This document shows positions 1,882 to 20,242 of a stretch of 20,242 bases of DNA, piece by piece. This DNA is from Eubacteriales bacterium. GTDB lineage: Bacteria > Bacillota > Clostridia > Christensenellales > DUVY01. The position numbers and the translations under genes are program-made. The notes under the pieces are model-generated. The model did no database searches, had not been told where the DNA came from, and saw only the letters and a program-made list of their open reading frames with translations. The first letter of the stretch is position 1. The number at the start of each line of letters is the position of its first letter. Where the stretch lies: contig JAVBLK010000017.1 of assembly GCA_031553565.1 (NCBI GenBank), positions 1 to 20,242 of the forward strand, written 5' to 3'.

Positions 1882-2190
1882 ATGCGGATAGATAACAAAA
1901 TTGTCAATCAGACATTATACATCGGCCTTTCCGGCGAGCTGGACGAGCATACCTCGCATTACACGCGCCAGACGCTTGATACTCTGATGGCGGCGGACGG
2001 CTATGCGCGTGTAGTGATCGATTTATCCGAGCTTTCTTTTATGGACAGTACGGGCGTCGGCGTACTTATCGGCCGGTTCAAAAAGCTGTCCGGGCGCGGC
2101 CTGCCGATATTTATCGCAAACCCGTCAAAGCAGGCGGACAGGATATTCAATATGACCGGACTGTACGAAATAATGCCGAAAATCTCTTGA
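1882..2190 (+). CDS. spoIIAA: Anti-sigma-F factor antagonist SpoIIAA (STAS domain), 102 aa
   Basis: The size, the STAS-like sequence and conserved motifs fit SpoIIAA: a DSTG motif (the phosphorylatable-Ser loop) and a LSGRG glycine-rich segment. It is the first gene of a spoIIAA-spoIIAB-sigF array. The start at ATG 1882 has only a weak Shine-Dalgarno sequence. Confidence 0.8.
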   Translation: MRIDNKIVNQTLYIGLSGELDEHTSHYTRQTLDTLMAADGYARVVIDLSELSFMDSTGVGVLIGRFKKLSGRGLPIFIANPSKQADRIFNMTGLYEIMPKIS

Positions 2191-2381
2191 CGCGCAGGCG
2201 TATCGGGCGTGTGCGGCAAAGCCACGCAAAAATGCGCCCCGGTCTCATCGTCATGCAGATTTTTACTAAGTAAACGCCGCTGCCCGCCTGAAATGCCAAT
2301 TGATCGCCCATAAAAAATATACTCCTAAACAATATTTCTCCACACTCATTAAACAAGAAACCATAAAGGATACGGGAACCA

Positions 2382-2831
2382 GTGAAAAAGACAGACATCC
2401 TTGAAAACGAAATGAGCCTTGTAGTAAAGGCGATCGGAAAAAACGAGTCGTTTGCGCGCAGTACCGTGGCGGCATTCGCCGTGCAGCTGAACCCAACCCT
2501 GGACGAGGTGAACGACATCAAGACCGCCGTATCCGAGGCGGTGACAAATTGCGTCGTACACGGTTACGAGGGCAAGGGCGGCGGCTATATAACGATAGCG
2601 GCGAAAATTGCGGGGCAGACGCTGTTCATATCTGTTTCCGACAACGGCGTCGGGATCAAGGATATTGAAAAGGCGCGCGAGCCGTTTTTTACCACCAAGC
2701 CTGAACAGGAGCGCAGCGGTATGGGCTTTACCGTCATGGAAACCTTTATGGAGAAGGTAGAGGTGGAATCGGCCGCGGGCAGCGGTACAACCGTACGTAT
2801 GCAGAAAAATATCGGCAGAGTAAAGGCCTGA
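2382..2831 (+). CDS. spoIIAB: Anti-sigma-F factor / serine kinase SpoIIAB (GHKL ATPase), 149 aa, GTG start
   Basis: NESFARSTVAAF...EAVTNCVVHGY...DNGVGI...FFTTKPEQERSGMGFTVME are the N, G1 and G2 boxes of SpoIIAB-type GHKL kinases. AAAGGA lies 11 nt upstream of the GTG. An alternative start is the ATG at 2410. Confidence 0.85.
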   Translation: MKKTDILENEMSLVVKAIGKNESFARSTVAAFAVQLNPTLDEVNDIKTAVSEAVTNCVVHGYEGKGGGYITIAAKIAGQTLFISVSDNGVGIKDIEKAREPFFTTKPEQERSGMGFTVMETFMEKVEVESAAGSGTTVRMQKNIGRVKA

Positions 2832-2921
2832 CGCATGAGAAAAGAAACGACGCTTTAATGGCGGTTACATATTATTTTTTCCTGAAACGCTGACTATCCC
2901 CAAAGGAGATGAACCGCCTAT

Positions 2922-3659
2922 ATGCTGGAACATGAGGAAACCCTTGCCTGCCTTGTAAAAGCCAAGGCGGGGGACGAGCAGGCAAAGGCCGTGCTGCTTG
3001 AACATAATTCGCCGCTGATCAAAAGCATAATCCGCCGCTACAAGAACAAGGGCGTCGACTATGACGACCTTTATCAGCTGGGATGTATGGGACTGTTAAA
3101 GGCTATCAAGAATTTTGACACGTCGTTCAACGTGCGTTTTTCAACATATGCAGTACCGATGATAGCGGGCGAAGTAAAGCGTTTCCTGCGCGATGACGGG
3201 TATATAAAGGTTTCGCGCGCGCTGAAAGTAGTTTCGGGAAAAATTTCGCGCTTTGTCGAGGATTTCAAAAAGCAAAACCTTGCCGACCCGGATGTGGAAA
3301 CCATTGCGCACGAGTTCGGGATGGAGCCGGCCGAAGTCGTGTTTGCGATGGAATCGGCCAAAATGCCTATATCGCTCTTTGAAAAAACCGACAGCCAGGA
3401 CGAAAAATCCCAAAGCCTTATCGACAAGCTGGCGGCAAACGATGATTCTGACGAGCTTTTAGATAAATTGATGCTGAAGGAAATTATTGAAAACCTGGCG
3501 CCGCGCGACAAAAAGATCATCGTTTTAAGATATTTCCGCGACAAAACACAGAGCGAGATATCGCAGATCATGGGGGTCTCGCAGGTTCAGATATCCCGTT
3601 TGGAGAACAAAATAATTTCGGGTATAAAAGCCGCATTCGCGCTTAACAAGCCCTCGTAA
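2922..3659 (+). CDS. sigF: Sporulation sigma factor sigma-F (sigma-70 family, regions 2-4), 245 aa
   Basis: DDLYQLGCMGLLKAIKNFD...RFSTYAVPMIAGE is sigma-70 region 2, and the C-terminal region 4 HTH reads EISQIMGVSQVQISRLE. It sits immediately after spoIIAA-spoIIAB, and AAAGGAGA lies upstream. Confidence 0.85.
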   Translation: MLEHEETLACLVKAKAGDEQAKAVLLEHNSPLIKSIIRRYKNKGVDYDDLYQLGCMGLLKAIKNFDTSFNVRFSTYAVPMIAGEVKRFLRDDGYIKVSRALKVVSGKISRFVEDFKKQNLADPDVETIAHEFGMEPAEVVFAMESAKMPISLFEKTDSQDEKSQSLIDKLAANDDSDELLDKLMLKEIIENLAPRDKKIIVLRYFRDKTQSEISQIMGVSQVQISRLENKIISGIKAAFALNKPS

Positions 3660-3705
3660 GCGCATAGCCTTCACATAATACCTGATCCGTGCTATAAAAT
3701 AAAAA

Positions 3706-3739
3706 CACCCCGCGGCGCTGCCGCGGGGTGTAAAATTTT
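3706..3739 (+). terminator. Rho-independent terminator of the spoIIA-sigF operon (CACCCCGCGGC-GCT-GCCGCGGGGTG + TAAAATTTT)
   Basis: Perfect 11-bp GC-rich stem with a 3-nt loop, followed by a T tract. Confidence 0.85.
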
Positions 3740-3757: not shown

Positions 3758-3916
3758 GGAAACGATGAATAAATGAGGTTAATTTAGAGCAAGTATTTTT
3801 AAGTCAGAAAACGGCTTGTTTTTGCAGCAAATAGTAGAACTATTGGCAAGAAAAGAAGACGTTTTCATCCGAAAAAGACTTGCGCTATATATTTTGCTTA
3901 AATTTTCAGCGTTTCC
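3758..3916 (-). repeat. MITE-like repeat, copy B, inverted relative to copies A and C
   Basis: The reverse complement of 3758-3916 aligns with copy C at about 90% identity. Its terminal GGAAA overlaps the left inverted repeat of the adjacent IS by about 5 nt. Confidence 0.7.
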
Positions 3917-5196
3917 TTAACAAAGATGCGAATAAGTCTTTTAAGCAAAACATGCAATAGAGATAAATGTGATAAAATAATGATATGGAAAAGCAAGTAA
4001 GTTTTAGTGAACTTGAGTATAGCGGGAAACGGAAAAAGACAAAGCGGGAAATATTTCTTGAAGCAATGGAACAGATAGTACCGCTTGAAATGATGTGCGA
4101 AATAATAAGGCCGCATTATGCGGTAGCGGGGAACGGCAGACAGCCGATAGAGCTAAAAAAGATGATAAAGATGTATCTAATCAGCCAATGGTACAATTTA
4201 TCTGATGAAATGACCGAGGACACGATATACGAGAATCAAGCGGTACGGCGGTATGTGGGAATAGAGTTGGCGCAAGAGAATGCGCCTGATAGAACGACAT
4301 TAGGGAAATTTCGCGCAAGTCTGGAAAAGCACGGCTTGAACAAGAAAATTTTTGAGGAAATGAATAAGCGGTTTAAGGAACAAGGGATAATACTTCGGGA
4401 AGGAACAATAGTAGACGCAACCATAATACAAGCACCGGCATCAACGCGCAACAAAACTAAAAGCCGAGACCCGGAAATGAGCAGCACAAAAAAGAATAAC
4501 AACCATCATTTTGGTTTCAAAGCGCATATAGGCGTAGACAAAGAAAGCGGGCTAATACACGATATAGCTGTAACGACAGCGAAAACTGCAGACATAGAGG
4601 CGGCGGCAAGCGTAATGCACGGCGAAGAAAAAGAGATATTGGGCGATGCAGGTTTTATCGGTCTAGAAAAGCGAGAAGACATTATAAATAGATTTGGTCA
4701 AGAGCCGATAGAGAATCTGGCAATTGCCCCGATAAGAAGAGGGCCTAAAGCAAAAGTAAAACCGCAGCTAAAAAAAGAAATATGTGTAAAAATAAATAGG
4801 CGGCGCATGAAAATCCACAAAATGCCGGATGGCGAAGAAAAGGATCGGCTAAAAGCGGAAGAAAAAGCAAAGTCGCAAATACGCGCAAAGGTCGAGTATC
4901 CGTTTCGGATAATGAAAGTAATTTTTGGATTTAGAAAGACAAGATATAAGGGTCTTGATAAAAACGAAAATAAACTATATATGCTTTTTGGATTGGTCAA
5001 CCTCTATTTTGTTATGCAAAAAAACAAGTTGTCCACACAGAAAGCATAAAAAAGGTCAAAAAAACGAAATAAACCGGAAAAAATAAGAAAAGCAAAAAAG
5101 TATGTTCGATTAAAAAGGTTTTGAAGCGCCCTAATTGTCCACAAAAAACTTAGGACGCTTCCAAAACCTTACTTAATCGCATATTCGATAAGGAAA
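3912..5196 (+). mobile_element. IS5-family insertion sequence (~1.28 kb) with imperfect ~26-bp terminal inverted repeats (left TTTCCTTAACAAAGATGCGAATAAGT, right reverse complement TTTCCTTATCGAATATGCGATTAAGT)
   Basis: The terminal repeats match at 20 of 26 positions and flank a single DDE transposase ORF. The body is AT-rich compared with flanking genes. Confidence 0.75.
3985..5049 (+). CDS. IS5-family DDE transposase, 354 aa
   Basis: GTIVDATIIQAP, HFGFKAHIGVD and a C-terminal YKGL...N...LVNLY are the characteristic N2/N3/C1 blocks of IS5/IS1182-group transposases. Confidence 0.8.
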   Translation: MEKQVSFSELEYSGKRKKTKREIFLEAMEQIVPLEMMCEIIRPHYAVAGNGRQPIELKKMIKMYLISQWYNLSDEMTEDTIYENQAVRRYVGIELAQENAPDRTTLGKFRASLEKHGLNKKIFEEMNKRFKEQGIILREGTIVDATIIQAPASTRNKTKSRDPEMSSTKKNNNHHFGFKAHIGVDKESGLIHDIAVTTAKTADIEAAASVMHGEEKEILGDAGFIGLEKREDIINRFGQEPIENLAIAPIRRGPKAKVKPQLKKEICVKINRRRMKIHKMPDGEEKDRLKAEEKAKSQIRAKVEYPFRIMKVIFGFRKTRYKGLDKNENKLYMLFGLVNLYFVMQKNKLSTQKA

Positions 5197-5207: not shown

Positions 5208-7154
5208 ATGGAAGAAAACAAAGATAAATCCTCACTTTCATTTTCCCCCGAACGGGTTTCTTTTGACGGGCAGACAGGAACGGAGAAAGAAAAAATTCCT
5301 GCTAACGAGGCGGACAGCCCCAAAGAAAAAAGCCCGTACTCATACGGCGGCCAGGCGCTTATCGAGGGCGTTATGATGCGCGGGCGGACTTCGATGGCAA
5401 TCGCCGTAAGGGAGCCGTCGGGGAACGTGGCGACCGAATGCAAGCGTATCGCCGACGTGCGGAAAAGTATCTGGTACCGTATTCCCGTCGTCCGCGGCGT
5501 GTTCAATTTCGGCGCGACGCTGGTGATGGGCTTTAAGACACTTATGCGCAGCGCGGAGGCGGCGGGCGAGGAGGACGAGCAGCTGGGCAAGGGCGGTATG
5601 GCGTTCGCGGTCATAATCGCGCTGGCGCTGTTTGTCGGGTTGTTTATATTTGTGCCGCGGCTTGCGGCGTCCGGCCTTGAAAGGTGGCTTTTTGAGGGGC
5701 ACCGTTACGCGTTCCTTTTTACGAATATCACCGAGAGCGTCTTGAGGATAATAATATTCATACTATACTTGTGGGGCGTTTCGCTGATGAAAGACATCAG
5801 GCGCACATACATGTACCACGGGGCGGAGCATAAGACCATAAACGCATATGAAAAGGGCGCGGAGCTGACGGTTGAAAATGTCAAAAAGCACAGTACGCGC
5901 CACAACCGCTGCGGCACGACGTTCCTGTTCTTTGTCATCGTGATCAGTATTTTTGTCTTTACGCTGGTTACGTGGGGCTGCGCCGAATTGGGTTTAAGAT
6001 ACGACGCGACAGGGGCGGACGGCCTTTCAAACCGCTTTTTATACAACGTGATACTTATGGCTATAAGGATCGCGCTGCTGCCGTTTGTCGCGGGGCTGTC
6101 CTACGAGCTGCTGCGTTTATTGGCAAGGGGCAAGGACAGCAATATTGTCTTACGTATATTGCGCGCGCCGGGGCTTGGACTGCAGCGGCTGACGACAAAG
6201 GAGCCGACTGACGATATGCTGGAGGTTGCGATCGCGTCCTTTCACGCGGCGTACGCAATGGATCACGACCCGGATATGCAGGACTACAAGTTTCAGCTAA
6301 CCTACGACTTTAAAAGGTTTTACGACGCTAAAAAGGAAGCGCTTGCCGCCGCGGGAGTAAGCGACGGGGCCGCCCTTGACTGGGTATGCTGCGATATATT
6401 GAACGTAAGCCGCGGGGGCTTGAACGGGCTTAAGCTTATAAGCCGCGGGGACGGGGACAAAATAGCTGCGGCATGCGATAAACTGAAGGCCGGGCAGCCG
6501 CTGCAATACGTGCAGGGCTTTACAGAGTTTATGGGCAATAAGTTTACCGTCGATAAATCTGTGCTTATCCCCAGGCCGGAGACCGAGCTTCTGGCTGAGG
6601 CCGCGGTCAAATATGCGGTGAGTTTAAAGGCGCAGGGCGGAGAAATACATGCCCTTGACCTCTGCTGCGGCAGCGGCTGTATCGGGATCACCCTCGCCCT
6701 TAAGGCCGGGATAAGCGTGACGCTGTCCGACGTCAGCGCGGACGCAGCGGCAACCGCCGGGAAAAACGCGGACAGTTTAGGCGCGCAAAACATAACGGTT
6801 GTTAACTGCGATATGCTTACAGGGCTTTCGGGCGGCTACGACATTATTACATTTAATCCGCCGTACATAAGGACCGCGGATATCGAAACGCTGGAAAGAA
6901 CGGTAAAAGACCACGAGCCCGTACTTGCCCTTGACGGCGGCGCGGACGGGCTGGATTTTTACAGAAGGCTGCATGGCGCCTTAACGCAGCCCCCAAAAGA
7001 CGGTACGCCGTATTTAAGGGCCGGCGGCAGGGTTTTTATGGAGATAGGAAAGGGTCAGGCGCAGGATATCAGGGACATATTCAAGGGATTTAACGTCGAA
7101 ACTATACAAGACTATAACGGCATCGAGAGAATATTGGTCTTATTTAAGGAATAA
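5208..7154 (+). CDS. prmC: Fusion protein: an N-terminal DUF1385 (YqhQ-like) domain followed by a C-terminal release-factor glutamine N5-methyltransferase PrmC/HemK; 648 aa
   Basis: The N-terminal half carries YGGQALIEGVMMRG and a multi-pass membrane region typical of DUF1385. The C-terminal half carries VLIPRPETE, LDLCCGSGCIG and the NPPY catalytic motif. The ORF is continuous and sits directly upstream of prfA. Confidence 0.8.
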   Translation: MEENKDKSSLSFSPERVSFDGQTGTEKEKIPANEADSPKEKSPYSYGGQALIEGVMMRGRTSMAIAVREPSGNVATECKRIADVRKSIWYRIPVVRGVFNFGATLVMGFKTLMRSAEAAGEEDEQLGKGGMAFAVIIALALFVGLFIFVPRLAASGLERWLFEGHRYAFLFTNITESVLRIIIFILYLWGVSLMKDIRRTYMYHGAEHKTINAYEKGAELTVENVKKHSTRHNRCGTTFLFFVIVISIFVFTLVTWGCAELGLRYDATGADGLSNRFLYNVILMAIRIALLPFVAGLSYELLRLLARGKDSNIVLRILRAPGLGLQRLTTKEPTDDMLEVAIASFHAAYAMDHDPDMQDYKFQLTYDFKRFYDAKKEALAAAGVSDGAALDWVCCDILNVSRGGLNGLKLISRGDGDKIAAACDKLKAGQPLQYVQGFTEFMGNKFTVDKSVLIPRPETELLAEAAVKYAVSLKAQGGEIHALDLCCGSGCIGITLALKAGISVTLSDVSADAAATAGKNADSLGAQNITVVNCDMLTGLSGGYDIITFNPPYIRTADIETLERTVKDHEPVLALDGGADGLDFYRRLHGALTQPPKDGTPYLRAGGRVFMEIGKGQAQDIRDIFKGFNVETIQDYNGIERILVLFKE

Positions 7155-7166
7155 GGAAAAAAAGCA

Positions 7167-8246
7167 GTGTTTGAAAAACTGGCAGGAATAAAGCAGAGGT
7201 ACGAGGAGCTCAGCAAGCAGGTCTCCGACCCTTCGATAATAGGCAGCCGCGAGAAATGGACGCCCCTTGTAAAGGAGCATTCGTCGCTTACGCCAATTGT
7301 GGAGACATACGACAGGTATTTAAAGGCCGACGCGGATCTTAAAGAGGCGCAGGGCATGCTGAAGGGCGAATCTGACCCGTTAATGCGCGAATTCTTACAA
7401 GGCGAGATCGACAGGAACCTTCAGGAAACGGCTAAGATCGAGGAAGAGCTGAAAATACTGTTGCTGCCGGTCGATCCCGACGACGACAAGGACGTCATAA
7501 TCGAGGTCAGGGCGGGCGCGGGCGGCGACGAGGCGGGCTTGTTCGGCGCGCAGATCGTGCGTATGTACAAGATGTACGCTGCGCTTATGGGTTGGAAGGT
7601 CGAGGATATCGACTATAACGAGTCCGAGGCGGGCGGTATCAAGGAAGCCACTATTTCTATATCGGGCAAGATGGTCTACAGCAATTTAAAGTACGAGAGC
7701 GGCGTGCACAGGGTGCAGAGGGTGCCCGAGACCGAGACCCAGGGGCGCGTCCATACCTCTACTATTACCGTCGCGGTATTGCCCGAGGTCGAGGAAGTGA
7801 CGGTAGAAGTATTGGAAAAGGACCTGAAGATCGACACATACAGATCGGGCGGCGCGGGCGGCCAGCATGTCAACAAGACCGAGAGCGCGATCAGGATCAC
7901 ACATTTACCGACAGGCGTCATCGTCGCGTGCCAGGACGAACGCAGCCAGATAAAGAACCGCGAAAAGGCGATGAAGGCGTTGCGCGCAAAGCTTTACGAT
8001 ATGCAGAAGCTCGAGGCCGAAAAGAATTACGCGGGGATGAGGAAGGCGCAGATAGGCACGGGCGACCGCAGCGAACGTATCAGGACGTACAATTTTCCGC
8101 AGGGGCGCGTCAGCGACCACAGGATCAACCTGACCCTGTACAACATCCAGTACTTTATGAACGGCGAGATAGGCGAGATGATAGAGGCTTTGAGGATAGC
8201 CGCGCAGGCCGCCGCCCTCCAGGGCGCCGCCGGGAATCAGGCGTGA
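7167..8246 (+). CDS. prfA: Peptide chain release factor 1, 359 aa, GTG start
   Basis: The GGQ motif (SGGAGGQHVNKTESA), the PxT-class RF1 domain architecture and the N-terminal LAGIKQRYEELSKQVSDPSII all match RF1. Confidence 0.9.
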   Translation: MFEKLAGIKQRYEELSKQVSDPSIIGSREKWTPLVKEHSSLTPIVETYDRYLKADADLKEAQGMLKGESDPLMREFLQGEIDRNLQETAKIEEELKILLLPVDPDDDKDVIIEVRAGAGGDEAGLFGAQIVRMYKMYAALMGWKVEDIDYNESEAGGIKEATISISGKMVYSNLKYESGVHRVQRVPETETQGRVHTSTITVAVLPEVEEVTVEVLEKDLKIDTYRSGGAGGQHVNKTESAIRITHLPTGVIVACQDERSQIKNREKAMKALRAKLYDMQKLEAEKNYAGMRKAQIGTGDRSERIRTYNFPQGRVSDHRINLTLYNIQYFMNGEIGEMIEALRIAAQAAALQGAAGNQA

Positions 8247-8496: not shown

Positions 8497-8580
8497 AGTG
8501 TTAGGAAAGTTCGGCGGAAAAACAAATTGATCCACGGGTACTCGTTCAAAGGGTTGAAAATAGGTTCAACCCTTTTTATA
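8497..8580 (+). ncRNA. Candidate small RNA (~80 nt) between prfA and purF, bounded by a promoter and an intrinsic terminator. No family assigned
   Basis: A promoter-like element sits upstream and a GGGTTGAA-AATAG-GTTCAACCC hairpin plus TTTTT sits downstream. No ORF lies inside. Confidence 0.3.
8551..8580 (+). terminator. Rho-independent terminator (GGGTTGAAC stem, TTTTTATATTT tail)
   Basis: Perfect stem at 8551-8558 / 8565-8572, followed by five T residues. Confidence 0.75.
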
Positions 8581-12198: not shown

Positions 12199-12816
12199 AT
12201 GAACAAGTATGAATACCTTGACGAGTTGAGGAGGCGTATCGGCAGGCTGCCGCAATACGACATTGATAACGCGGTCAACGCTTATTCGGTCGAGATCGGC
12301 AGGATGCTTGACGAGGAGTGGGACTGGGGCAGGATCGAAGGCGCGATCGGCAGCCCGAAAGAGGCGGCACGGCGCGTTTTGGACGGAAGGCCGGTTTATG
12401 TATCGCAAAACAATATGCCCGGCTATCGCTATAACGGCCCCGGCGTTTACCAAAGCGCATACGGCGGGGGCGCGAACGGCGGCGCGCAGGGCAACGCGCC
12501 AAAGAGCAAACGCGGCGCCTTCTGGAAGTATTATTTCATTTTCGGGCTTATCACGATACCGCTTACGATAGCTGCGCTTGCCACGGCATTCGCGCTGTGC
12601 GCCGCGGCATTCGGCCTTGCGGCGGGCGGCGCGGCGGCGATAATATACTCGGTAATAATCGGCATAACCACCGGGTCGCTTTTAGTGTTTTTAACATACT
12701 GCGGCGCGGCGCTGCTTGTACTGGGCACAGGCTTGTTATTTGCGTGGGTCATAAAGATAGTTTTTAAGTCGGTCATCGCGCTGCTGGGCGGCAAAAACCG
12801 TAGGGCGGAGGAATAA
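12199..12816 (+). CDS. DUF1700-family membrane protein, 205 aa, with an N-terminal cytoplasmic helical domain and C-terminal transmembrane helices
   Basis: MNKYEYLDELRRRIGRLPQYDIDNAVNAYSVEI...GSPKEAARRVL matches the DUF1700 N-terminal signature. It contains a Gly-rich linker and hydrophobic C-terminal segments. The RBS is AGGAGG/AAGGAAA. Confidence 0.65.
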   Translation: MNKYEYLDELRRRIGRLPQYDIDNAVNAYSVEIGRMLDEEWDWGRIEGAIGSPKEAARRVLDGRPVYVSQNNMPGYRYNGPGVYQSAYGGGANGGAQGNAPKSKRGAFWKYYFIFGLITIPLTIAALATAFALCAAAFGLAAGGAAAIIYSVIIGITTGSLLVFLTYCGAALLVLGTGLLFAWVIKIVFKSVIALLGGKNRRAEE

Positions 12817-14093: not shown

Positions 14094-14843
14094 ATGAGGA
14101 TGTTATTACTAAGTTTGACTTCATGGTGGGGAGACCTCAACAATTTCACAAAGGTATTTTATATAATCGCGATAGCGGCCAGCCTTATCCTGCTTATACA
14201 GCTGATCATCGCTATGTTCGGCTTCGGGCATGACGCGGACGTCGGCGGCGCGGACGCGGATATGGGCGGCGACGTCGGCGCGGGCGGCGCGGATTACGAC
14301 GCGGGGACAGACCTTGGCGGGCATGATATCGCGCATGACGCCGGCGGGCACGACGTCAGCCACGGCGGCGCGGGATTAAGGCTGTTCTCCGTGCAGACGA
14401 TAGTCAGCTTTCTGGTCACCTTCGGCTGGAGCGGCGTGGCCTTCGGCAGCACCGCAATGCCCCAATGGCTTGCGTTTATCATAGCGTTCCTTATCGGTAC
14501 AGTGACGCTTTTCGGTATGGCGAAGCTGATGCAGGCGATGATGAAATTACAGTCTGCGGGCAACATCGACTTAAAGAATGCCGTCGGGCTTTCGGGCGAG
14601 GTATATATCCCCGTGCCGGCAAACCAGGGCGGCATGGGCAAGGTCAATATAACGATACAGGGACGCCTCGGCGAATATAACGCGGTAACCTTAGGCGAAG
14701 AGCTCTTAAAGACCGGCGTGTTTGTTAAAGTTGCCGAGGTGCGCGGAAACACCTTGGTAGTTGTAAAGGACGACGGGGCAAGGCTGCCGCAAACTGAAAC
14801 AGCGGATGCGCAAATTGAAGTAAAGCCCAAAAAGCGCAAGTAA
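14094..14843 (+). CDS. NfeD-like membrane protein (YuaF/YqeZ type) with a C-terminal OB-fold domain and an unusual Asp/His/Gly-rich insert, 249 aa
   Basis: N-terminal transmembrane helices; a low-complexity acidic segment GHDADVGGADADMGGDVGAGGADYDAGTDLGGHDIAHDAGGHDVSHGG; further transmembrane helices; and a C-terminal beta-rich region (GEVYIPVP...GKVNITIQGRLGEYNAV...VFVKVAEVRGNTLVVV). The gene sits directly upstream of SPFH genes. Confidence 0.7.
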   Translation: MRMLLLSLTSWWGDLNNFTKVFYIIAIAASLILLIQLIIAMFGFGHDADVGGADADMGGDVGAGGADYDAGTDLGGHDIAHDAGGHDVSHGGAGLRLFSVQTIVSFLVTFGWSGVAFGSTAMPQWLAFIIAFLIGTVTLFGMAKLMQAMMKLQSAGNIDLKNAVGLSGEVYIPVPANQGGMGKVNITIQGRLGEYNAVTLGEELLKTGVFVKVAEVRGNTLVVVKDDGARLPQTETADAQIEVKPKKRK

Positions 14844-14867: not shown

Positions 14868-15404
14868 ATGCCGCTTGGAGTAGTGATAGGCACACTTGCC
14901 GCAGTAATATTAGTATGCATAGCTGTGATCGCTTTATGGATGTCACGATATAAGAAATGCCCGTCCGACAAGATTATGGTCATCTACGGTAAGGTCGGCG
15001 TCGATAAAGAGGGCAAACCAATAACGGCAAAGTGCTTGCACGGCGGCGCGGCATTTATTATGCCGGTAATCCAGGCCTACGCTTTCCTCGATCTTGCGCC
15101 TATCGGCATCGAGATCGCGCTGTCGCAGGAAGAGGGCAGCTTTAGGGGAACTTTCGCGGTCGCGGTTTCAACCGAGCCGGGGCTTATGCAATGCGCTGCC
15201 GAAAGGCTGATGGCGCTGTCCAGAAAAGATATTGCCGAGCTTGCGGACAGCATATTGCGCAGCCACGTACGCCAGATATTGTTTGATAAAAGCGCAGGCC
15301 GCCGCGAGATAGCGCAAACAATTGCGGAGGCAGCCGGGCCGGATCTAAATAAAGTAGGCCTCCATATTGTTAACGCAGACATTTCAGAATACAAGCTTAT
15401 ATAA
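14868..15404 (+). CDS. Short SPFH (band-7) domain protein, 178 aa. It is a diverged tandem paralogue of the N-terminal half of the downstream flotillin
   Basis: SRYKKCPSDKIMVIYGKVG...HGGAAFIMPVIQAYAFLDL parallels SRYKRCPADKILVIYGKVG...HGGAAFIMPVTQSFQFLDL in the next gene. It ends where the flotillin coiled-coil would begin. Its RBS is GAGGGAGA. Confidence 0.7.
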   Translation: MPLGVVIGTLAAVILVCIAVIALWMSRYKKCPSDKIMVIYGKVGVDKEGKPITAKCLHGGAAFIMPVIQAYAFLDLAPIGIEIALSQEEGSFRGTFAVAVSTEPGLMQCAAERLMALSRKDIAELADSILRSHVRQILFDKSAGRREIAQTIAEAAGPDLNKVGLHIVNADISEYKLI

Positions 15405-16943: not shown

Positions 16944-17024
16944 TAAGCAAGGAATAGTTAAAACGTGTCGTGAGCACAGCCTCCGCCGCGATAAACTTGA
17001 AAATACTAGCGGAATAGAAAAGTT

Positions 17025-17753
17025 TTGACGGTAGCCATAGCGGCTGTTTTGCTTTGTTCTGTTTTAATTGGGTTTTCGGGGTGTAAAGAAAGATATAAGG
17101 AATTTGAGACGGAATATTTTAAATGCCGCGAGTATAAGGACAGAATCAATATTCCTGAATTGACATATTTGGGTAAGGAGCAAGAAATTCTTATTGTACC
17201 CGAAAAAATACGAGGAAAACCGGTTGCGCTGCTGGGGGAAACGGCAGTTTATTTGGATGGGGCGGGAAGTTATTCGCGCTGGAAAAGTGATAAACTTAAA
17301 AAGCTGTTTTTAAAGCGTAAGGCAAGAGCGCCATTAAGTAAGAACTGTTTTCCGAGCCTTGAAGGAATTTATGTTATAGGATTATCAAATGAGAATGGGT
17401 TAAGTAGCGAGATGTTTGATACGCAAGATGTAAAAATATATGTTCCTAATATATTTGAAAATACATATAATCACAGACTTTTTACTGCAAATGTCGGATA
17501 CTTATACAATTATGATGAAAGTCCGCAGTATGACTATTATTGGATAGATTACTATGCTTACGGCGCAAAGATAAATTATATTCCTCCTGTTCCGGAGCGG
17601 AATGGATATATTTTTTCCGGTTGGTATAAAGAAGCAGCTTGTGTCCTTGAATGGAATTTCGATTTTGGCACACTTCCTGCACCTATATTGGATGAAGATG
17701 GAGTAACAATATATCAAGAACTTAAACTATACGCCAAGTGGATCAAGAATTAG
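17025..17753 (+). CDS. Predicted lipoprotein with a C-terminal Listeria/Bacteroides-type repeat (GYxFxGWY...LYAKW) domain, 242 aa, TTG start (start uncertain)
   Basis: Signal peptide with lipobox FSGC. GYIFSGWYKEAACVLEWNFDFGTLP...IYQELKLYAKW matches the List_Bact repeat signature. The gene is AT-rich, unlike upstream genes. Confidence 0.55.
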   Translation: MTVAIAAVLLCSVLIGFSGCKERYKEFETEYFKCREYKDRINIPELTYLGKEQEILIVPEKIRGKPVALLGETAVYLDGAGSYSRWKSDKLKKLFLKRKARAPLSKNCFPSLEGIYVIGLSNENGLSSEMFDTQDVKIYVPNIFENTYNHRLFTANVGYLYNYDESPQYDYYWIDYYAYGAKINYIPPVPERNGYIFSGWYKEAACVLEWNFDFGTLPAPILDEDGVTIYQELKLYAKWIKN

Positions 17754-17781
17754 TACGATAAAAATTATAAGGGAGAAACAA

Positions 17782-18006
17782 ATGAGAAAATCTATTAAGC
17801 TGATTATAGCTATGGTTTTTGCAGTTTTTATCGCCTTTACAGCGTTCACTTTTATTAAGCCAGCTGAAGTGGCCGCGAATTCCGGCGTTTCGGGCGCGCC
17901 GACTGGACAAGCATTACTGAGTGCGACAAATACATATAATATCGATTATTTCAGCACACAGCCGTTGAATCGTGGTCAGGGGGACGTTTACCTTGACAGA
18001 GAATAG
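17782..18006 (+). CDS. Small secreted protein (74 aa) whose last 10 codons (GQGDVYLDRE) and stop codon are supplied by the left arm and loop of the hairpin repeat. Probably a truncated gene
   Basis: Signal peptide MRKSIKLIIAMVFAVFIAFTAFTF. The C-terminus is identical to that of ORF 19011-20066 and is encoded by repeat sequence starting at 17974. Confidence 0.5.
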   Translation: MRKSIKLIIAMVFAVFIAFTAFTFIKPAEVAANSGVSGAPTGQALLSATNTYNIDYFSTQPLNRGQGDVYLDRE

Positions 18007-18052
18007 AGAGATTGAGGCTTATAGTCCTGTCAAGGTAAACGTCCCCCTGACC
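17974..18052. repeat. Hairpin repeat, copy 1. Perfect 26-bp inverted arms (GGTCAGGGGGACGTTTACCTTGACAG / CTGTCAAGGTAAACGTCCCCCTGACC) are separated by a 27-nt spacer. It is the first part of a duplicated module of at least 227 bp (17974-18200 nearly identical to 20034-20242)
   Basis: The arms are exact reverse complements at 17974-17999 and 18027-18052. The second copy at 20034-20112 differs by one spacer base. Confidence 0.9.
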
Positions 18053-18083
18053 ACTTTGATACGTTGCCTGAAAACGTGCGTGA

Positions 18084-18338
18084 ATGATGGAGCAGAAGAC
18101 ATACAATTGGCTTGAGCATGAGGATAAGGTTTATGAGGCCTTTGGCAATGTGCTGACAGAACTAGTAAATAAATATAAAATTGATGATAAAAAAGCTTTG
18201 AAGGACGACGAGTTGCTAAAACGGATAGGGATTGAACTGCGAAACCGTACGGGCGCGAGTAAGAGACTGATAGCGCAAAAGCTGGAAATCGATCGGGAAC
18301 GGGTAAGAAAACTGCTGTCAATTGCCCCGTCCCCGTGA
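18084..18338 (+). CDS. Small helix-turn-helix protein, 84 aa. The C-terminal HTH resembles sigma-70 region 4 and the HTH of IS630/transposase helper proteins. The first ~32 codons are duplicated at 20145
   Basis: LLKRIGIELRNRTGASKRLIAQKLEIDRERVRKLL shows the HTH pattern. The gene start lies inside the duplicated module, 32 nt after the hairpin. Confidence 0.55.
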   Translation: MMEQKTYNWLEHEDKVYEAFGNVLTELVNKYKIDDKKALKDDELLKRIGIELRNRTGASKRLIAQKLEIDRERVRKLLSIAPSP

Positions 18339-18359
18339 CACTGTGGATTTCCGTTTGCG

Positions 18360-18383
18360 TTTACAGAATAAATATGTTATAAT
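18360..18383 (+). promoter_or_regulatory. Extended -10 promoter (TGTTATAAT) upstream of the lipoprotein gene
   Basis: The TGnTATAAT consensus at 18375-18383 is perfect. The -35-like TTTACA is too close (12 nt), so the call rests on the extended -10. Confidence 0.45.
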
Positions 18384-18502
18384 GCATTTGTAAGATGGTG
18401 TTTTTTTACTCTTTTGCAGGCTCGCGAATATAATATACTGGAATGCTTTAAGGTTTGCACCTACAATGAGGTTGTAAGCCGACGTAAAAAGGGAGGTTCA
18501 AA

Positions 18503-18955
18503 ATGACAAAGAAATTAGCAAAAATTCTGATAATGGGGGTGCTGATAATAATGGCAATTGGGCTATTTACAGCTTGTGGCGACAAGGATTGGAGCAAAGA
18601 TTTCGATTTGTCCGACGAAAAAATCGTTTGGGATGAATCGACTTATGTTGACGACGAACATACGACGCCTGACAAATTGATTGTTAAATTCAAAAGCACA
18701 GACACATACCCTTATTTAAAGTTGCGAGATTTCAAGATGTCAAATGCAAAGGGGTTTGTTTATACAAATTTGAATCCCAATGAGGGTGAGTTGTATTATG
18801 ATGGCTGGCGTCAAAGCGGAGAAATTGCTTTGAAAAAAACAGATAAGCAAAGCATAATTGCAGCGATAAGACACATAGAAACATTGCCATTCATTAAATC
18901 GGTTCAGCAGATGCAGAACATTCCAGTTGACAATTCCGTAATGACAATTCCGTAA
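18503..18955 (+). CDS. Predicted lipoprotein, 150 aa, no recognisable domain
   Basis: Signal peptide with lipobox LFTAC. GGAGG Shine-Dalgarno 7 nt upstream. AT-rich codon usage. Confidence 0.55.
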   Translation: MTKKLAKILIMGVLIIMAIGLFTACGDKDWSKDFDLSDEKIVWDESTYVDDEHTTPDKLIVKFKSTDTYPYLKLRDFKMSNAKGFVYTNLNPNEGELYYDGWRQSGEIALKKTDKQSIIAAIRHIETLPFIKSVQQMQNIPVDNSVMTIP

Positions 18956-19010
18956 TGGTAGATTTAGCAAATATAAAACACAAAAAAATAAAAATCTGGA
19001 GAAAAATTAA

Positions 19011-20066
19011 ATGAGAACCGAAACACTTTTCAAGAGACAATGGAAAATTTCGGTTATAGCACTGGTGTTAATAGTACTTGTCGCAAGTATATTGTGTGCA
19101 ACAATTCCAACAACAGCATACGCAAAAGAAGTAGATTTTGCGGAAAATACAATTCAGCGACGAATTCCAACACTTAATGACGATTTTGACGATAGCAAAG
19201 TTATTGTTGTTCTTAACCAAAAGAATAGTAAATACAATGGTGTAGTTAGAATTGAGGATTTTAAGATAGACGTAGAAAAGGCAAGTCTGGTTAATACTCA
19301 ACGGACTGAACGTTTAGATAGAAGCGATGATTCCGCTACGGATGCAGTTAAAACTGGACAAGCAGTAGTCACCGACCTTTTTCGGGTAGATAATGCGAAA
19401 AGTAGTAGTTTGGTGAGCGAAAGCGAGTTTTTTCAAATACTATCTATTGATTTGCCTATAAGAGGAAAAGAAAAGGTTCTTGAGGCGATAGCAGAGCTTA
19501 AAAAATCTGAGATAGTTTATTCTGCTGAGCCAGATTATCGTTACGAAACGATTGATTTGTGGGCACCTAACGATACGAACTATACCACTAGTCAGTGGGG
19601 GTTAACGGGAACAAATGGGATACAAGCAGCAAATGCTTGGGATATGACGCGAGGTCTTGCTGATATTAGAGTGGGCTTATTTGAAACAGGTGCGCAGCAA
19701 AATCACCCCGACCTAGACGGCAGGTTTTTGGCACCAAATTTTACATTAGGTAATGCAGACCATGGAACTCACGTTGCAGGAATTGTGGGTGCCATTTCAA
19801 ATAATAATCAAGGAGTAGCAGGCGTTTCACAATCTAATATGATGTTGCTAAATCGCAATTCAAACGATTTTGTTGACAGCATGGCAAGGGCTGCAAATAA
19901 TAATATTTGGGTTATCAACGCTAGTTACGAGTACATAAGCGGTGGCGTAATAGAAAATCACGCAGTTGCAATACATAATTACCAAGGTTTGCTCGTGTGC
20001 GCCGCAGGCAACAGCACTGCAGATATTGATAATGGTCAGGGGGACGTTTACCTTGACAGAGAATAG
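19011..20066 (+). pseudogene. Subtilisin-like (S8) serine protease with a signal peptide and an I9 propeptide. It is truncated after the oxyanion-hole Asn region by the hairpin repeat, so the catalytic Ser block is missing, and it has Glu at the catalytic Asp position
   Basis: The His block HGTHVAGIVGA and the Asn block LVCAAGNS are present. The Asp-block position reads GLFETGAQQNHPDL. The ORF ends with GQGDVYLDRE-stop, which is encoded by the repeat from 20034. No GTSMA block appears before the window ends. Confidence 0.6.
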
Positions 20067-20112
20067 AGAGATTGAGGCTTCTAGTCCTGTCAAGGTAAAC
20101 GTCCCCCTGACC
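20034..20112. repeat. Hairpin repeat, copy 2 (same 26-bp perfect arms, 27-nt spacer with one substitution)
   Basis: The arm and spacer sequence is identical to 17974-18052 except for A to C in the spacer. Downstream similarity continues to the window end, with a single inserted A. Confidence 0.9.
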
Positions 20113-20144
20113 ACTTTGATACGTTGCCTGAAAACGTGCGTGAA

Positions 20145-20242
20145 ATGATGGAGCAGAAGACATACAATTGGCTTGAGCATGAGGATAAGGTTTATGAGGC
20201 CTTTGGCAATGTGCTGACAGAACTAGTAAATAAATATAAAAT
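20145..20242 (+). CDS. Second copy of the small HTH protein gene (5' part only, cut off by the window end)
   Basis: It translates to MMEQKTYNWLEHEDKVYEAFGNVLTELVNKYKI, which is identical to the N-terminus of ORF 18084-18338. Confidence 0.5.
   Translation, partial: MMEQKTYNWLEHEDKVYEAFGNVLTELVNKYK

Follow-up and report, generated by a model that had tools for sequence, protein, structure and literature searches.

A single open reading frame in the window, the 20,242-nucleotide stretch of Eubacteriales DNA analysed here, joins a DUF1385 membrane module to the release-factor methyltransferase PrmC, and the resulting protein is a genuine, recurrent and unpublished variant of PrmC. We think it probable, at roughly 80%, that this fusion has been inherited vertically and that it holds PrmC at the inner face of the membrane, beside the cytoplasmic face of DUF1385. 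PrmC tunes translation termination efficiency in bacteria and, to our knowledge, every characterised PrmC is soluble. Two possibilities arise from a PrmC that resides permanently on a membrane protein: release-factor methylation may take place locally at the membrane, or PrmC may have a partner there. As a functional lead the fusion is moderately interesting, and its mechanism is one that we infer.

Domain architecture of the fused protein

5208..7154, plus strand: whole fused ORF, DUF1385 membrane module plus PrmC (ORF listing, Pfam, NCBIfam, homologues)
5208..5321, plus strand: N-terminal extension, aa 1-38, non-conserved and predicted to be disordered (AF2 pLDDT, homologue starts)
5481..6254, plus strand: PF07136 DUF1385 match, aa 92-349 (Pfam)
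6285..7151, plus strand: complete two-domain PrmC/HemK module, approximately aa 360-648 (TIGR03534, Foldseek)
6573..6587, plus strand: R-P-E-T-E, aa 456-460, PrmC motif in contact with RF1 where methylation occurs (checked against Table 2 of PMC3098086)
6657..6677, plus strand: SAM-binding motif I, D-L-C-C-G-S-G, aa 484-490
6855..6866, plus strand: catalytic N-P-P-Y, aa 550-553, invariant in 57 fused sequences

The ORF listing of the window gives 5208..7154 on the plus strand as one uninterrupted frame of 648 aa with an ATG start. This ATG is the only start codon that retains a GGQ tripeptide (see below) in the protein; an in-frame stop lies upstream at 5151-5153, and no ATG, GTG or TTG codon was found between 5208 and GGQ. 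The N-termini of homologues begin 3-40 aa ahead of GGQ, and the AF2 pLDDT stays under 50 at aa 1-29 and 31-38. Domain searches recognise both halves. PF07136 matches with E=5.3e-80 and 268 bits, which passes the gathering threshold (cutoff 22.1) and covers model positions 1-225 of 227, and the NCBIfam model TIGR03534 (RF_mod_PrmC) matches aa 392-643 with 214.7 bits against a curated equivalog cutoff of 199.1, spanning model positions 4-252 of 253; Pfam also places an MTase small domain at aa 481-568. The preliminary description, made from the sequence alone, had proposed a one-frame fusion of DUF1385 and PrmC, and this reading is borne out. It had also taken YGGQALIEGVMMRG as the signature of the DUF1385 domain. 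This segment is indeed found at aa 46-59 and is conserved family-wide, but it lies outside the Pfam domain, as the Pfam DUF1385 model only begins at aa 92. The NCBI pipeline names the fused proteins 'peptide chain release factor N(5)-glutamine methyltransferase', under which the DUF1385 module is hidden. A gene whose product is identical to the window protein was not found on record.

The PrmC half has a class I SAM-methyltransferase fold, and its top Foldseek matches are HemK/PrmC structures (TM 0.84-0.88). As the complete PrmC structures 1NV8 (TM 0.88) and 2B3T_A (TM 0.87) superpose over 283-299 columns, the PrmC module must start at around aa 360. This full-length superposition includes the N-terminal helical substrate-recognition domain; PrmC_N (PF17827) gave no Pfam match in the window protein, yet it is found in most fused homologues. 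The motifs RPDTE, EFwG and EP..AL..G contact the release factor and separate PrmC from its paralogues (Table 2, PMC3098086), and the corresponding IPRPETE, QPLQYVQGFTEFMG and TVKDHEPVLALDGG are present here and kept across the fused clade. The earlier claim of a complete PrmC with an NPPY motif thus holds, with TIGR03534 above its cutoff, NPPY at aa 550-553 and both domains superposing. Sequence and structural model alike mark the C-terminal half as an intact RF1/RF2 GGQ-glutamine N5-methyltransferase. It resembles the known PrmC/HemK proteins (TIGR03534; 1NV8, 1T43, 2B3T) in its C-terminal ~290 aa, in motif I, NPPY and RPxTE and in its position directly upstream of prfA. Whereas the canonical PrmC is a soluble protein of ~270-290 aa, here PrmC makes up the C-terminal half of a protein of 648 aa, which has four transmembrane (TM) helices. 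PrmC is also a module of a larger fused protein in the bifunctional PrmC/TrmB (NF002421), but there the partner is a tRNA m7G46 methyltransferase, the domain order is different and the protein is soluble; the window protein scores 71.4 bits against the NF002421 cutoff of 567 and does not belong to this family.

The ~40-aa linker that had been proposed between the two domains was not found. Most of this segment is the first helix of PrmC and the junction is modelled as ordered. We therefore reject a flexible linker on the basis of an AF2 pLDDT of 91-97 over aa 341-390 and a near-constant junction length, the distance between landmarks on either side being 120-131 aa in 76 of 77 fused proteins. 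The AF2 two-domain model of the fused protein has a pTM of 0.78. A few fused proteins (P0284, P0296) carry junction inserts of ~200 aa, and one locus, L007, is nested in the fused clade and has been split again, with an A8 run beside the break; a rigid interface can therefore not be obligatory. M337 is a candidate internal start for a free PrmC, with AGGAG 12 nt upstream, but this AGGAG lies within codons of the conserved KEP motif; no Shine-Dalgarno sequence was found ahead of the other candidate starts, M351 and M357.

Recurrence and origin of the fusion

Both domains are found in one protein in all of the 120 best 90%-identity clusters (41-64% identity), and 58 of the best 150 representatives at 50% identity are fused and carry both HGxEH and NPPY. 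In a neighbour-joining tree of DUF1385 modules the fused forms make up one clade, whose metagenome-assembled genome (MAG) labels include Christensenellaceae, Borkfalkia and Catabacter from gut and rumen Clostridia. In the sister lineages, DUF1385 and prmC are separate genes which abut or overlap, the distance from the DUF1385 stop to the prmC start being -14 to +12 nt in nine of the ten unfused loci checked. Because of this arrangement, the fusion could be achieved by the loss of one stop codon. Long DUF1385 representatives fall into two kinds, PrmC fusions with inserts and DUF1385 proteins with C-terminal extensions; no other fusion partner was found in these extensions, which have no significant Pfam domain and, in P0307 only, a sub-threshold LRR_5 match.

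A single-base error at the junction of two usually adjacent genes would yield such an ORF, and one might therefore ask whether a sequencing or assembly error has removed a stop and a restart between two separate genes. The split state of L007, with its A8 run, shows the opposite situation. However, the same unbroken frame is seen in over 120 clusters defined at 90% identity and in 58 defined at 50%, in NCBI, ENA, JGI and Logan assemblies, and the junction is conserved in length and modelled as an ordered structure. We give an indel artefact virtually no credence and reject it, as it is effectively refuted for the family by this recurrence in independent assemblies.

Predicted topology and conserved residues of the DUF1385 module

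5346..5447, plus strand: four-stranded beta-meander, aa 47-80, outside the Pfam model, predicted cytoplasmic (AF2 strands)
5589..5690, plus strand: TM helix 1, aa 128-161 (Kyte-Doolittle, AF2)
5709..5783, plus strand: TM helix 2, aa 168-192 (Kyte-Doolittle, AF2)
5817..5831, plus strand: H-G-A-E-H, aa 204-208, HxxEH pattern on a predicted cytoplasmic helix (conservation, AF2, loop charge)
5901..5918, plus strand: invariant H232 and R234-C235-G236-T237, predicted cytoplasmic entry of TM3 (module conservation)
5913..5987, plus strand: TM helix 3, aa 236-260 (Kyte-Doolittle, AF2)
6024..6128, plus strand: TM helix 4, aa 273-307, with invariant E300 near its predicted cytoplasmic end (Kyte-Doolittle, AF2, conservation)
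6144..6266, plus strand: predicted cytoplasmic C-terminal DUF1385 helices, aa 313-353, with P321, Q326 and L-T-T-K-E-P (aa 328-333)

Kyte-Doolittle and AF2 agree on four hydrophobic helices at approximately aa 128-161, 168-192, 236-260 and 273-307. The C-terminus of DUF1385 must be cytoplasmic, since PrmC is cytoplasmic, and four TM helices together with the positive-inside rule place the motifs on the cytoplasmic side; nine lysine and arginine residues are found in the cytoplasmic loop as compared to one in each outer loop. According to this topology, both ends of DUF1385 and every one of its conserved motifs would face the cytoplasm, on the same side as PrmC. These predictions support the earlier suggestion that PrmC is tethered to the membrane.

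Within 81 DUF1385 modules, 32 columns are at least 97% conserved, and the window protein has all of the family residues (GGQA..EG, YHGAEH, H..RCGT, E300, P321 and Q326). The standalone DUF1385/YqhQ proteins share GGQAxxEG, YHGAEH, H..RCGT, E300 and PG..LQ..TT.EP with the fusion, have the same four TM helices and are likewise encoded ahead of prmC/prfA in the operon, but they comprise only ~300-350 aa and stop soon after the TTxEP helices, whereas the fused chain runs directly into PrmC. H-G-A-E-H is 100% conserved in the 81 modules, lies in a helix that AF2 places at aa 195-215 and is a candidate metal-binding or catalytic site; the invariant E215 is also located on the cytoplasmic face, together with HxxEH, H232, C235 and E300.

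One might speculate that DUF1385 is a juxtamembrane metallohydrolase or protease acting on release factors, L31 or nascent chains, and that PrmC was fused to it to share a substrate. The invariant H204-x-x-E207-H208 on a helix at the cytoplasmic face (HxxEH, as in inverzincins), the invariant E215, H232, C235 and E300 on the same face, and the fact that translation proteins are the only recurring neighbours would all fit such a role. However, no sequence or fold similarity between DUF1385 and any peptidase was found, although HxxEH sits on a helix, and we consider this explanation quite unlikely. Membership of the inverzincins (M16-type HxxEH) was rejected, the motif being on a helix without similarity to the M16 fold. 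A solved structural relative of DUF1385 was not found either, and our literature search for DUF1385, PF07136, COG3872 and IPR010787 returned nothing functional, yqhQ being named only in sigma-B/sigma-F regulon lists. In B. subtilis, yqhQ appears in descriptions solely as a member of a stress regulon.

The GGQ tripeptide of DUF1385

5346..5354, plus strand: GGQ tripeptide G47 G48 Q49, opening strand 1 of the DUF1385 module (module conservation)

The strands of the beta-meander are predicted by AF2 at aa 47-51, 54-58, 62-68 and 74-80, and the first begins with a GGQ tripeptide. GGQ is present in 81 of 81 modules with five phylum labels, in all 118 proteins of a set retrieved without the GGQ segment in the query and in 120 of 128 diverse representatives at 50% identity; the glutamine is replaced by methionine in five representatives, four of them PrmC-fused, and by glutamate or serine in three others. 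The near-invariant GGQ within the DUF1385 signature is a new observation. GGQ is the motif that is methylated by PrmC in RF1 and RF2 (PMC3098086), as is also stated in a passage of PMC8904536.

It is therefore conceivable that PrmC recognises the GGQ of DUF1385. This GGQ could be a second substrate that accepts a methyl group, or a pseudo-substrate by which the active site is occupied or regulated. The tripeptide is the same as in the RF1/RF2 target and is near-invariant in DUF1385, it would be located on the cytoplasmic side together with PrmC, and DUF1385 and PrmC are fused or adjacent in most loci. On the other hand, in the AF2 model GGQ opens a beta-strand of a compact meander and is not part of an exposed loop, PrmC recognises RF1 not by a mere tripeptide but by a large surface comprising domains 2 and 3 with 42 contact residues (PMC3098086), the glutamine is replaced in the eight representatives given above, and GGQ may just as well serve the structure or the catalysis of DUF1385 itself. 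Recognition of this GGQ by PrmC thus seems improbable.

A further explanation would be that the meander is a very divergent RF-type GGQ domain, making DUF1385 a membrane-anchored release-factor-like or peptidyl-tRNA-hydrolase-like protein. The sole hhalign match between the DUF1385 N-terminal region and the RF1 profile aligns GGQ on GGQ and runs on into the next hairpin (A.AVR.PdG.I.v versus SAVRiTHlPTG-IVV), with P=0.003 and a probability of 10%; one of 200 column shuffles reaches this score, and with GGQ deleted the best match keeps its register with P=0.045. However, Pfam gave no RF-1/GGQ domain match (PF00472) in aa 44-90 at E up to 10, and hmmsearch --max between the RF GGQ domain and aa 44-90 returned E values of at least 15 in both directions, that is, no sequence-profile similarity. 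With the hmmsearch controls and Pfam negative and histidine-kinase ORFs scoring higher, we do not take homology to the RF domain as established, keep the match as a lead only and hold this explanation to be very improbable. The wider proposal that DUF1385 is a membrane-anchored GGQ protein in translation termination, whose glutamine is methylated by PrmC or serves as a PrmC-gating pseudo-substrate, is a long shot. If true, release-factor modification or a GGQ-dependent hydrolytic activity would be coupled to the cytoplasmic face of the membrane, and the glutamine-to-methionine change in some fused proteins would represent non-methylatable or methyl-mimicking variants.

Gene neighbourhood and functional implications

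7167..8246, plus strand: prfA (release factor 1), PrmC substrate, 12 nt downstream of the fused ORF (NCBIfam, Pfam)
3912..5196, plus strand: IS5-family insertion sequence, whose end lies 11 nt ahead of the ORF start (inverted repeats, transposase)
8548..8575, plus strand: terminator-like hairpin and T-run after prfA (consensus scan only)

The gene downstream of the fusion is prfA (NF001859, 505 bits; TIGR00019, 495 bits; PCRF and RF-1 domains), and of the 12 fused loci 11 have prfA next to the fused gene; the gap, taken to the tblastn RF1 match, is 3-94 nt. Among 80 species loci, which are those most similar to the query so that the frequencies are biased towards its relatives, prmC lies directly downstream of DUF1385 in 58, while prfA is present in 43 and rpmE in 45. 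The statement that many Firmicutes carry DUF1385 beside prmC and prfA as separate genes is confirmed by the 58 loci, and it extends beyond this phylum: the rpmE-DUF1385-prmC/prfA arrangement is seen again in Bacillota, Chloroflexota and one Actinobacteria-labelled MAG, and the order DUF1385-prfA-prmC is found in loci labelled Chloroflexota, Actinobacteria and Firmicutes/Bacillota. The association does not hold everywhere, as DUF1385 of Fusobacterium and of several Chloroflexota lies among unrelated neighbours; at DUF1385 loci lacking prmC no recurring theme was found, the neighbours being heterogeneous.

The fusion together with the conserved neighbourhood suggests a functional link between DUF1385 and PrmC. 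Alternatively, the fusion could be neutral, that is, a stop was lost between translationally coupled operon genes without any functional interplay, with PrmC methylating release factors in the usual way, the role of DUF1385 being unrelated and the tether incidental. Such an event is mechanistically easy, given the abutting or overlapping stop and start codons of unfused relatives, and the re-split L007, the long junction inserts in P0284 and P0296, the loci in which DUF1385 is unlinked to prmC (Fusobacterium, several Chloroflexota) and the fact that B. subtilis yqhQ is known only as a stress-regulon gene are in line with it. However, the fused state has been kept through divergence to ~31-35% identity, the junction length is tight and the AF2 two-domain model confident. 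In addition, adjacency of DUF1385 and prmC exceeds what is expected for unrelated genes and is seen across phylum labels and in two gene orders, including 14 loci with DUF1385 followed by prmC only and prfA elsewhere. We therefore regard a neutral fusion as unlikely.

For the preferred reading, a vertically inherited fusion that holds PrmC at the membrane, we propose that an ancestor in the gut and rumen Clostridia clade possessed abutting DUF1385 and prmC genes, which were probably translationally coupled, in an rpmE-DUF1385-prmC-prfA cluster. Loss of the stop between them would have joined both genes. In the fused product, PrmC would be held at the inner face of the membrane by a short, ordered and length-constrained junction, because the ends of DUF1385, the GGQ meander and the H-x-x-E-H/H/R-C-G/E cluster are all predicted to face the cytoplasm. 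Where the genes are separate, DUF1385 and PrmC might also work as a complex. DUF1385 may then take part in release-factor modification or translation termination, or regulate either of them, and it would probably do so by means of a metal- or cysteine-dependent site facing the cytoplasm. Trm112 is a soluble, zinc-binding protein, and homology between it and DUF1385 was not seen. A possible functional analogy is nevertheless provided by Trm112-Mtq2/HemK2 of eukaryotes and archaea, which is presented in passages of PMC3152332 and PMC6144793 as a GGQ-glutamine methyltransferase with a small, dedicated and non-catalytic partner protein, Trm112. Taken with the near-invariant GGQ, the fusion and the conserved neighbourhood provide the first concrete testable hypothesis for the large, multi-phylum DUF1385 family.

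In the closest relative the gene order is rpmE, fusion, prfA. No rpmE was found in the window, and the position that it occupies in relatives (upstream in L081) is taken by the IS5-family element, which has 26-nt terminal inverted repeats and a transposase at 3985-5049 (NF033581, 270 bits). A consensus scan found no promoter between this element and the ORF. The hairpin at 8548..8575 probably marks the end of the transcription unit, as predicted from its sequence.

An unbroken reading frame joins DUF1385 to PrmC

The ORF listing of the window contains a single unbroken frame of 648 aa with an ATG start, which is followed after 12 nt by prfA, the gene for RF1, matching two RF1 equivalogs with 505 and 495 bits:

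5208-7154, + strand: fusion of a DUF1385 membrane module to PrmC
7167-8246: prfA (RF1)

The preliminary description had named both halves from the sequence alone, and domain searches bear this out. DUF1385 (PF07136) was recognised N-terminally (aa 92-349, E=5e-80), Pfam SAM-methyltransferase domains cover aa 473-569, and TIGR03534, the NCBIfam equivalog for release-factor glutamine methyltransferase, scores 214.7 bits over aa 392-643 and so passes the curated cutoff of 199.1. The motifs it quoted are also present: YGGQALIEGVMMRG spans aa 46-59 and NPPY spans aa 550-553. The fusion is real and not the product of a sequencing indel: in a homologue search over 5.8 billion proteins, PF07136 and a methyltransferase domain occurred in one protein in all of the best 120 clusters considered (120/120; 41-64% identity, 560-710 aa), which were drawn from NCBI, ENA, JGI and Logan assemblies. 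When 1.84 billion 50%-identity representatives were scanned exhaustively with HMMER, 58 of the best 150 hits combined HGxEH with NPPY, down to ~31-35% identity; standalone DUF1385 proteins of ~300 aa ranked below them. The architecture is already in public databases, where some homologues are named 'peptide chain release factor N(5)-glutamine methyltransferase' by NCBI, and it is not annotated as a fusion there; no discussion of it was found in the searchable literature.

We propose, with a probability of about 0.8 for the parts presented here, that the fusion is a genuine membrane-anchored PrmC, predicted to methylate RF1 and RF2 at the membrane's cytoplasmic surface. The fusion is a new form of a known enzyme and the first functional lead for the large DUF1385 family.

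Topology of the membrane module and the junction

AlphaFold2, run with a 57-sequence alignment, gave a pLDDT of 91 and a pTM of 0.87 for the DUF1385 module and of 89.5 and 0.78, respectively, for the full fused protein. The following segments are predicted:

aa 1-38: disordered N-terminal segment without conservation
aa 47-80: four-stranded beta-meander, beginning exactly at a GGQ tripeptide
aa 93-119: long helix following the meander
aa 128-161: TM1
aa 168-192: TM2
aa 195-215: cytoplasmic helix bearing YHGAEH
aa 236-260: TM3, with H232 and R-C-G-T just before it
aa 273-307: TM4, containing E300
aa 313-353: two cytoplasmic helices with PG..LQ..TTxEP

Because there are four TM helices, both ends of the DUF1385 module lie on the same side of the membrane; the PrmC half must be cytoplasmic. 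In agreement with the positive-inside rule, the loop 193-235 holds nine Lys and Arg residues versus one in each outer loop. Across 81 modules with five phylum labels, the 32 columns conserved to at least 97% all lie on the cytoplasmic face or in the TM helices, leaving the two short outer loops without any.

The C-terminal half superposes on full-length PrmC structures over 283-299 columns (Foldseek; TM 0.88 for T. maritima 1NV8 and 0.87 for 2B3T, E. coli PrmC bound to RF1), and the PrmC half therefore begins near aa 360. With a pLDDT of 91-97 over aa 341-390, most of the ~40-aa linker originally envisaged turns out not to be a linker. The distance from TTxEP to RPxTE is 120-131 residues in 76/77 fused proteins, and a few (P0284, P0296) have long junction inserts. 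In the crystal complex, RF1 is contacted by the PrmC motifs IPRPDTE, EPxxYIxGxxEFxG and EPxxALxxG (PMC3098086, Table 2); these, motif I and NPPY are all found in the window protein and kept throughout the fused clade. Judged by its motifs, the PrmC half is intact.

Three minor features of DUF1385 proteins were seen. The acidic loop that leads from the interfacial helix to TM1 (aa 117-130, window ~5556-5597) is an insertion hotspot, with roughly 50-100 extra residues in homologues P0058, P0319, P0320, P0372 and others; the P0058 insert is repetitive and of low complexity. PF19928 (DUF6391) gives weak Pfam matches at residues ~180-243, over the RCG/TM3 region, in the modules of three loci from different phyla (L016, L063 and L058; E=0.002, 0.14 and 0.2), and is possibly a distantly related family. 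Six proteins carry extensions of 150-400 aa, mostly C-terminal (P0384, 708 aa; P0335, P0346, P0302, P0307) and N-terminal in P0385, in which no significant Pfam domain was found, with a sub-threshold LRR_5 in P0307 only; the extensions may represent further fusion partners not yet recognised.

Origin of the fusion from neighbouring genes

We compared 80 loci from species-representative genomes, which are the closest matches to the query, and their frequencies describe wider relatives, not the whole family. Twelve are fused, and a further 46 have prmC directly downstream on the same strand; prfA is present in 43/80 and rpmE lies upstream in 45/80. Loci labelled Chloroflexota, Actinobacteria and Firmicutes/Bacillota include examples of the order DUF1385-prfA-prmC, and one labelled Thermoanaerobaculia has rpmE-DUF1385-prfA. 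The closest relative among the matches listed (64% identity) has the order rpmE, fusion, prfA. As to whether relatives are fused or separate, the closest homologues are fused: a neighbour-joining tree built from DUF1385 modules groups the fused forms, that of the window among them, in one clade, and in its sister groups the two genes adjoin yet are separate.

In 9/10 unfused relatives checked, the prmC start lies -14 to +12 nt from the DUF1385 stop. Abutting or overlapping stop and start codons are the usual arrangement for translational coupling, and with this spacing the loss of one stop suffices for fusion. Such a loss could have been functionally neutral, and the existence of unlinked DUF1385 genes, the long-insert variants at the junction and a fission in locus L007 would fit this. 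We regard this as the main rival reading and consider it unlikely, as the fusion has persisted, its junction is constrained and DUF1385/prmC adjacency crosses phyla. L007 (6900-7420) is the one split locus that groups within the fused clade. Its DUF1385 ORF ends in a long, low-complexity tail of acidic and lysine residues; the TGA stop overlaps the prmC start GTG (GTGA), and an A8 run lies just upstream of it. The split is due to a secondary fission or to a frameshift error. Under the membrane-anchored reading, fusion of PrmC with its operon partner DUF1385 would have built an anchored enzyme that methylates RF1/RF2 at the membrane's inner face, and a PrmC-DUF1385 complex probably pre-exists in species with separate genes.

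The GGQ of DUF1385

The most conserved N-terminal motif of the DUF1385 family contains GGQ, the tripeptide whose Gln is methylated by PrmC in RF1/RF2 (PMC3098086). Every fused homologue whose N-terminus is intact carries it (113/113), and so does every module (81/81; the window and 80 loci). The same is true of 118/118 Fusobacterium-type proteins, for which the query lacked the GGQ segment, so that ascertainment bias is avoided. Among 128 diverse 50%-identity representatives, 120 have GGQ, five GGM (four fused to PrmC), two GGE and one GGS; all eight variants (P0289, P0298, P0364 and P0383, fused; P0380, P0318, P0329 and P0342, standalone) retain HxxEH and RCG. Methionine is unbranched and methyl-terminated, as is N5-methyl-Gln.

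With hhalign, the DUF1385 meander aligned to the release-factor GGQ domain GGQ on GGQ and on into the next hairpin (P=0.003; probability 10%; score equalled by 1/200 column shuffles), and the register was unchanged with GGQ deleted (P=0.045). Unfiltered hmmsearch between the two found no match in either direction, histidine-kinase ORFs scored better, and Pfam RF-1 was not matched by the meander; from these comparisons, homology is not established. DUF1385 might be a substrate or pseudo-substrate of PrmC via its GGQ. We regard this as quite improbable, because of the predicted position of GGQ at a strand start rather than on an exposed loop (AlphaFold2) and the large RF1 surface that PrmC recognises (PMC3098086).

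Flanking region of the window

Upstream of the fusion lie:

1882-3659: spoIIAA (STAS), spoIIAB (HATPase) and sigF (sigma-70 family), in spoIIA operon order
3705-3731: perfect 12-bp hairpin ending the spoIIA stretch (1882-3731)
3912-5196: IS5-family element (transposase 3985-5049) with 26-nt terminal inverted repeats, ending 11 nt before the fusion ATG

The spoIIA genes identify the source organism as a spore-forming Firmicute. The IS element occupies the rpmE position of relatives, and no rpmE was found in the window; no target-site duplication is evident at the element (4-nt flanks AGCG vs TCAT). The only Shine-Dalgarno-like sequence, AAGGAAA (5190-5196), is inside its right inverted repeat, no promoter-like site was found between the element and the fused ORF, and a terminator-like hairpin lies 3' of prfA. 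These features hint at an IS-mediated rearrangement and at operon transcription by read-through from the element.

A DUF4097 'toastrack' protein on one side and an SPFH/Band 7 protein on the other enclose three ORFs of 178-249 aa without a Pfam match at E<=1e-5 (12199-12816, 14094-14843 and 14868-15404). The stretch 17000-20242, which includes a subtilase-like ORF (19011-20066), has a GC content of 0.36-0.41 vs 0.50-0.58 in most of the remainder and may be acquired DNA.
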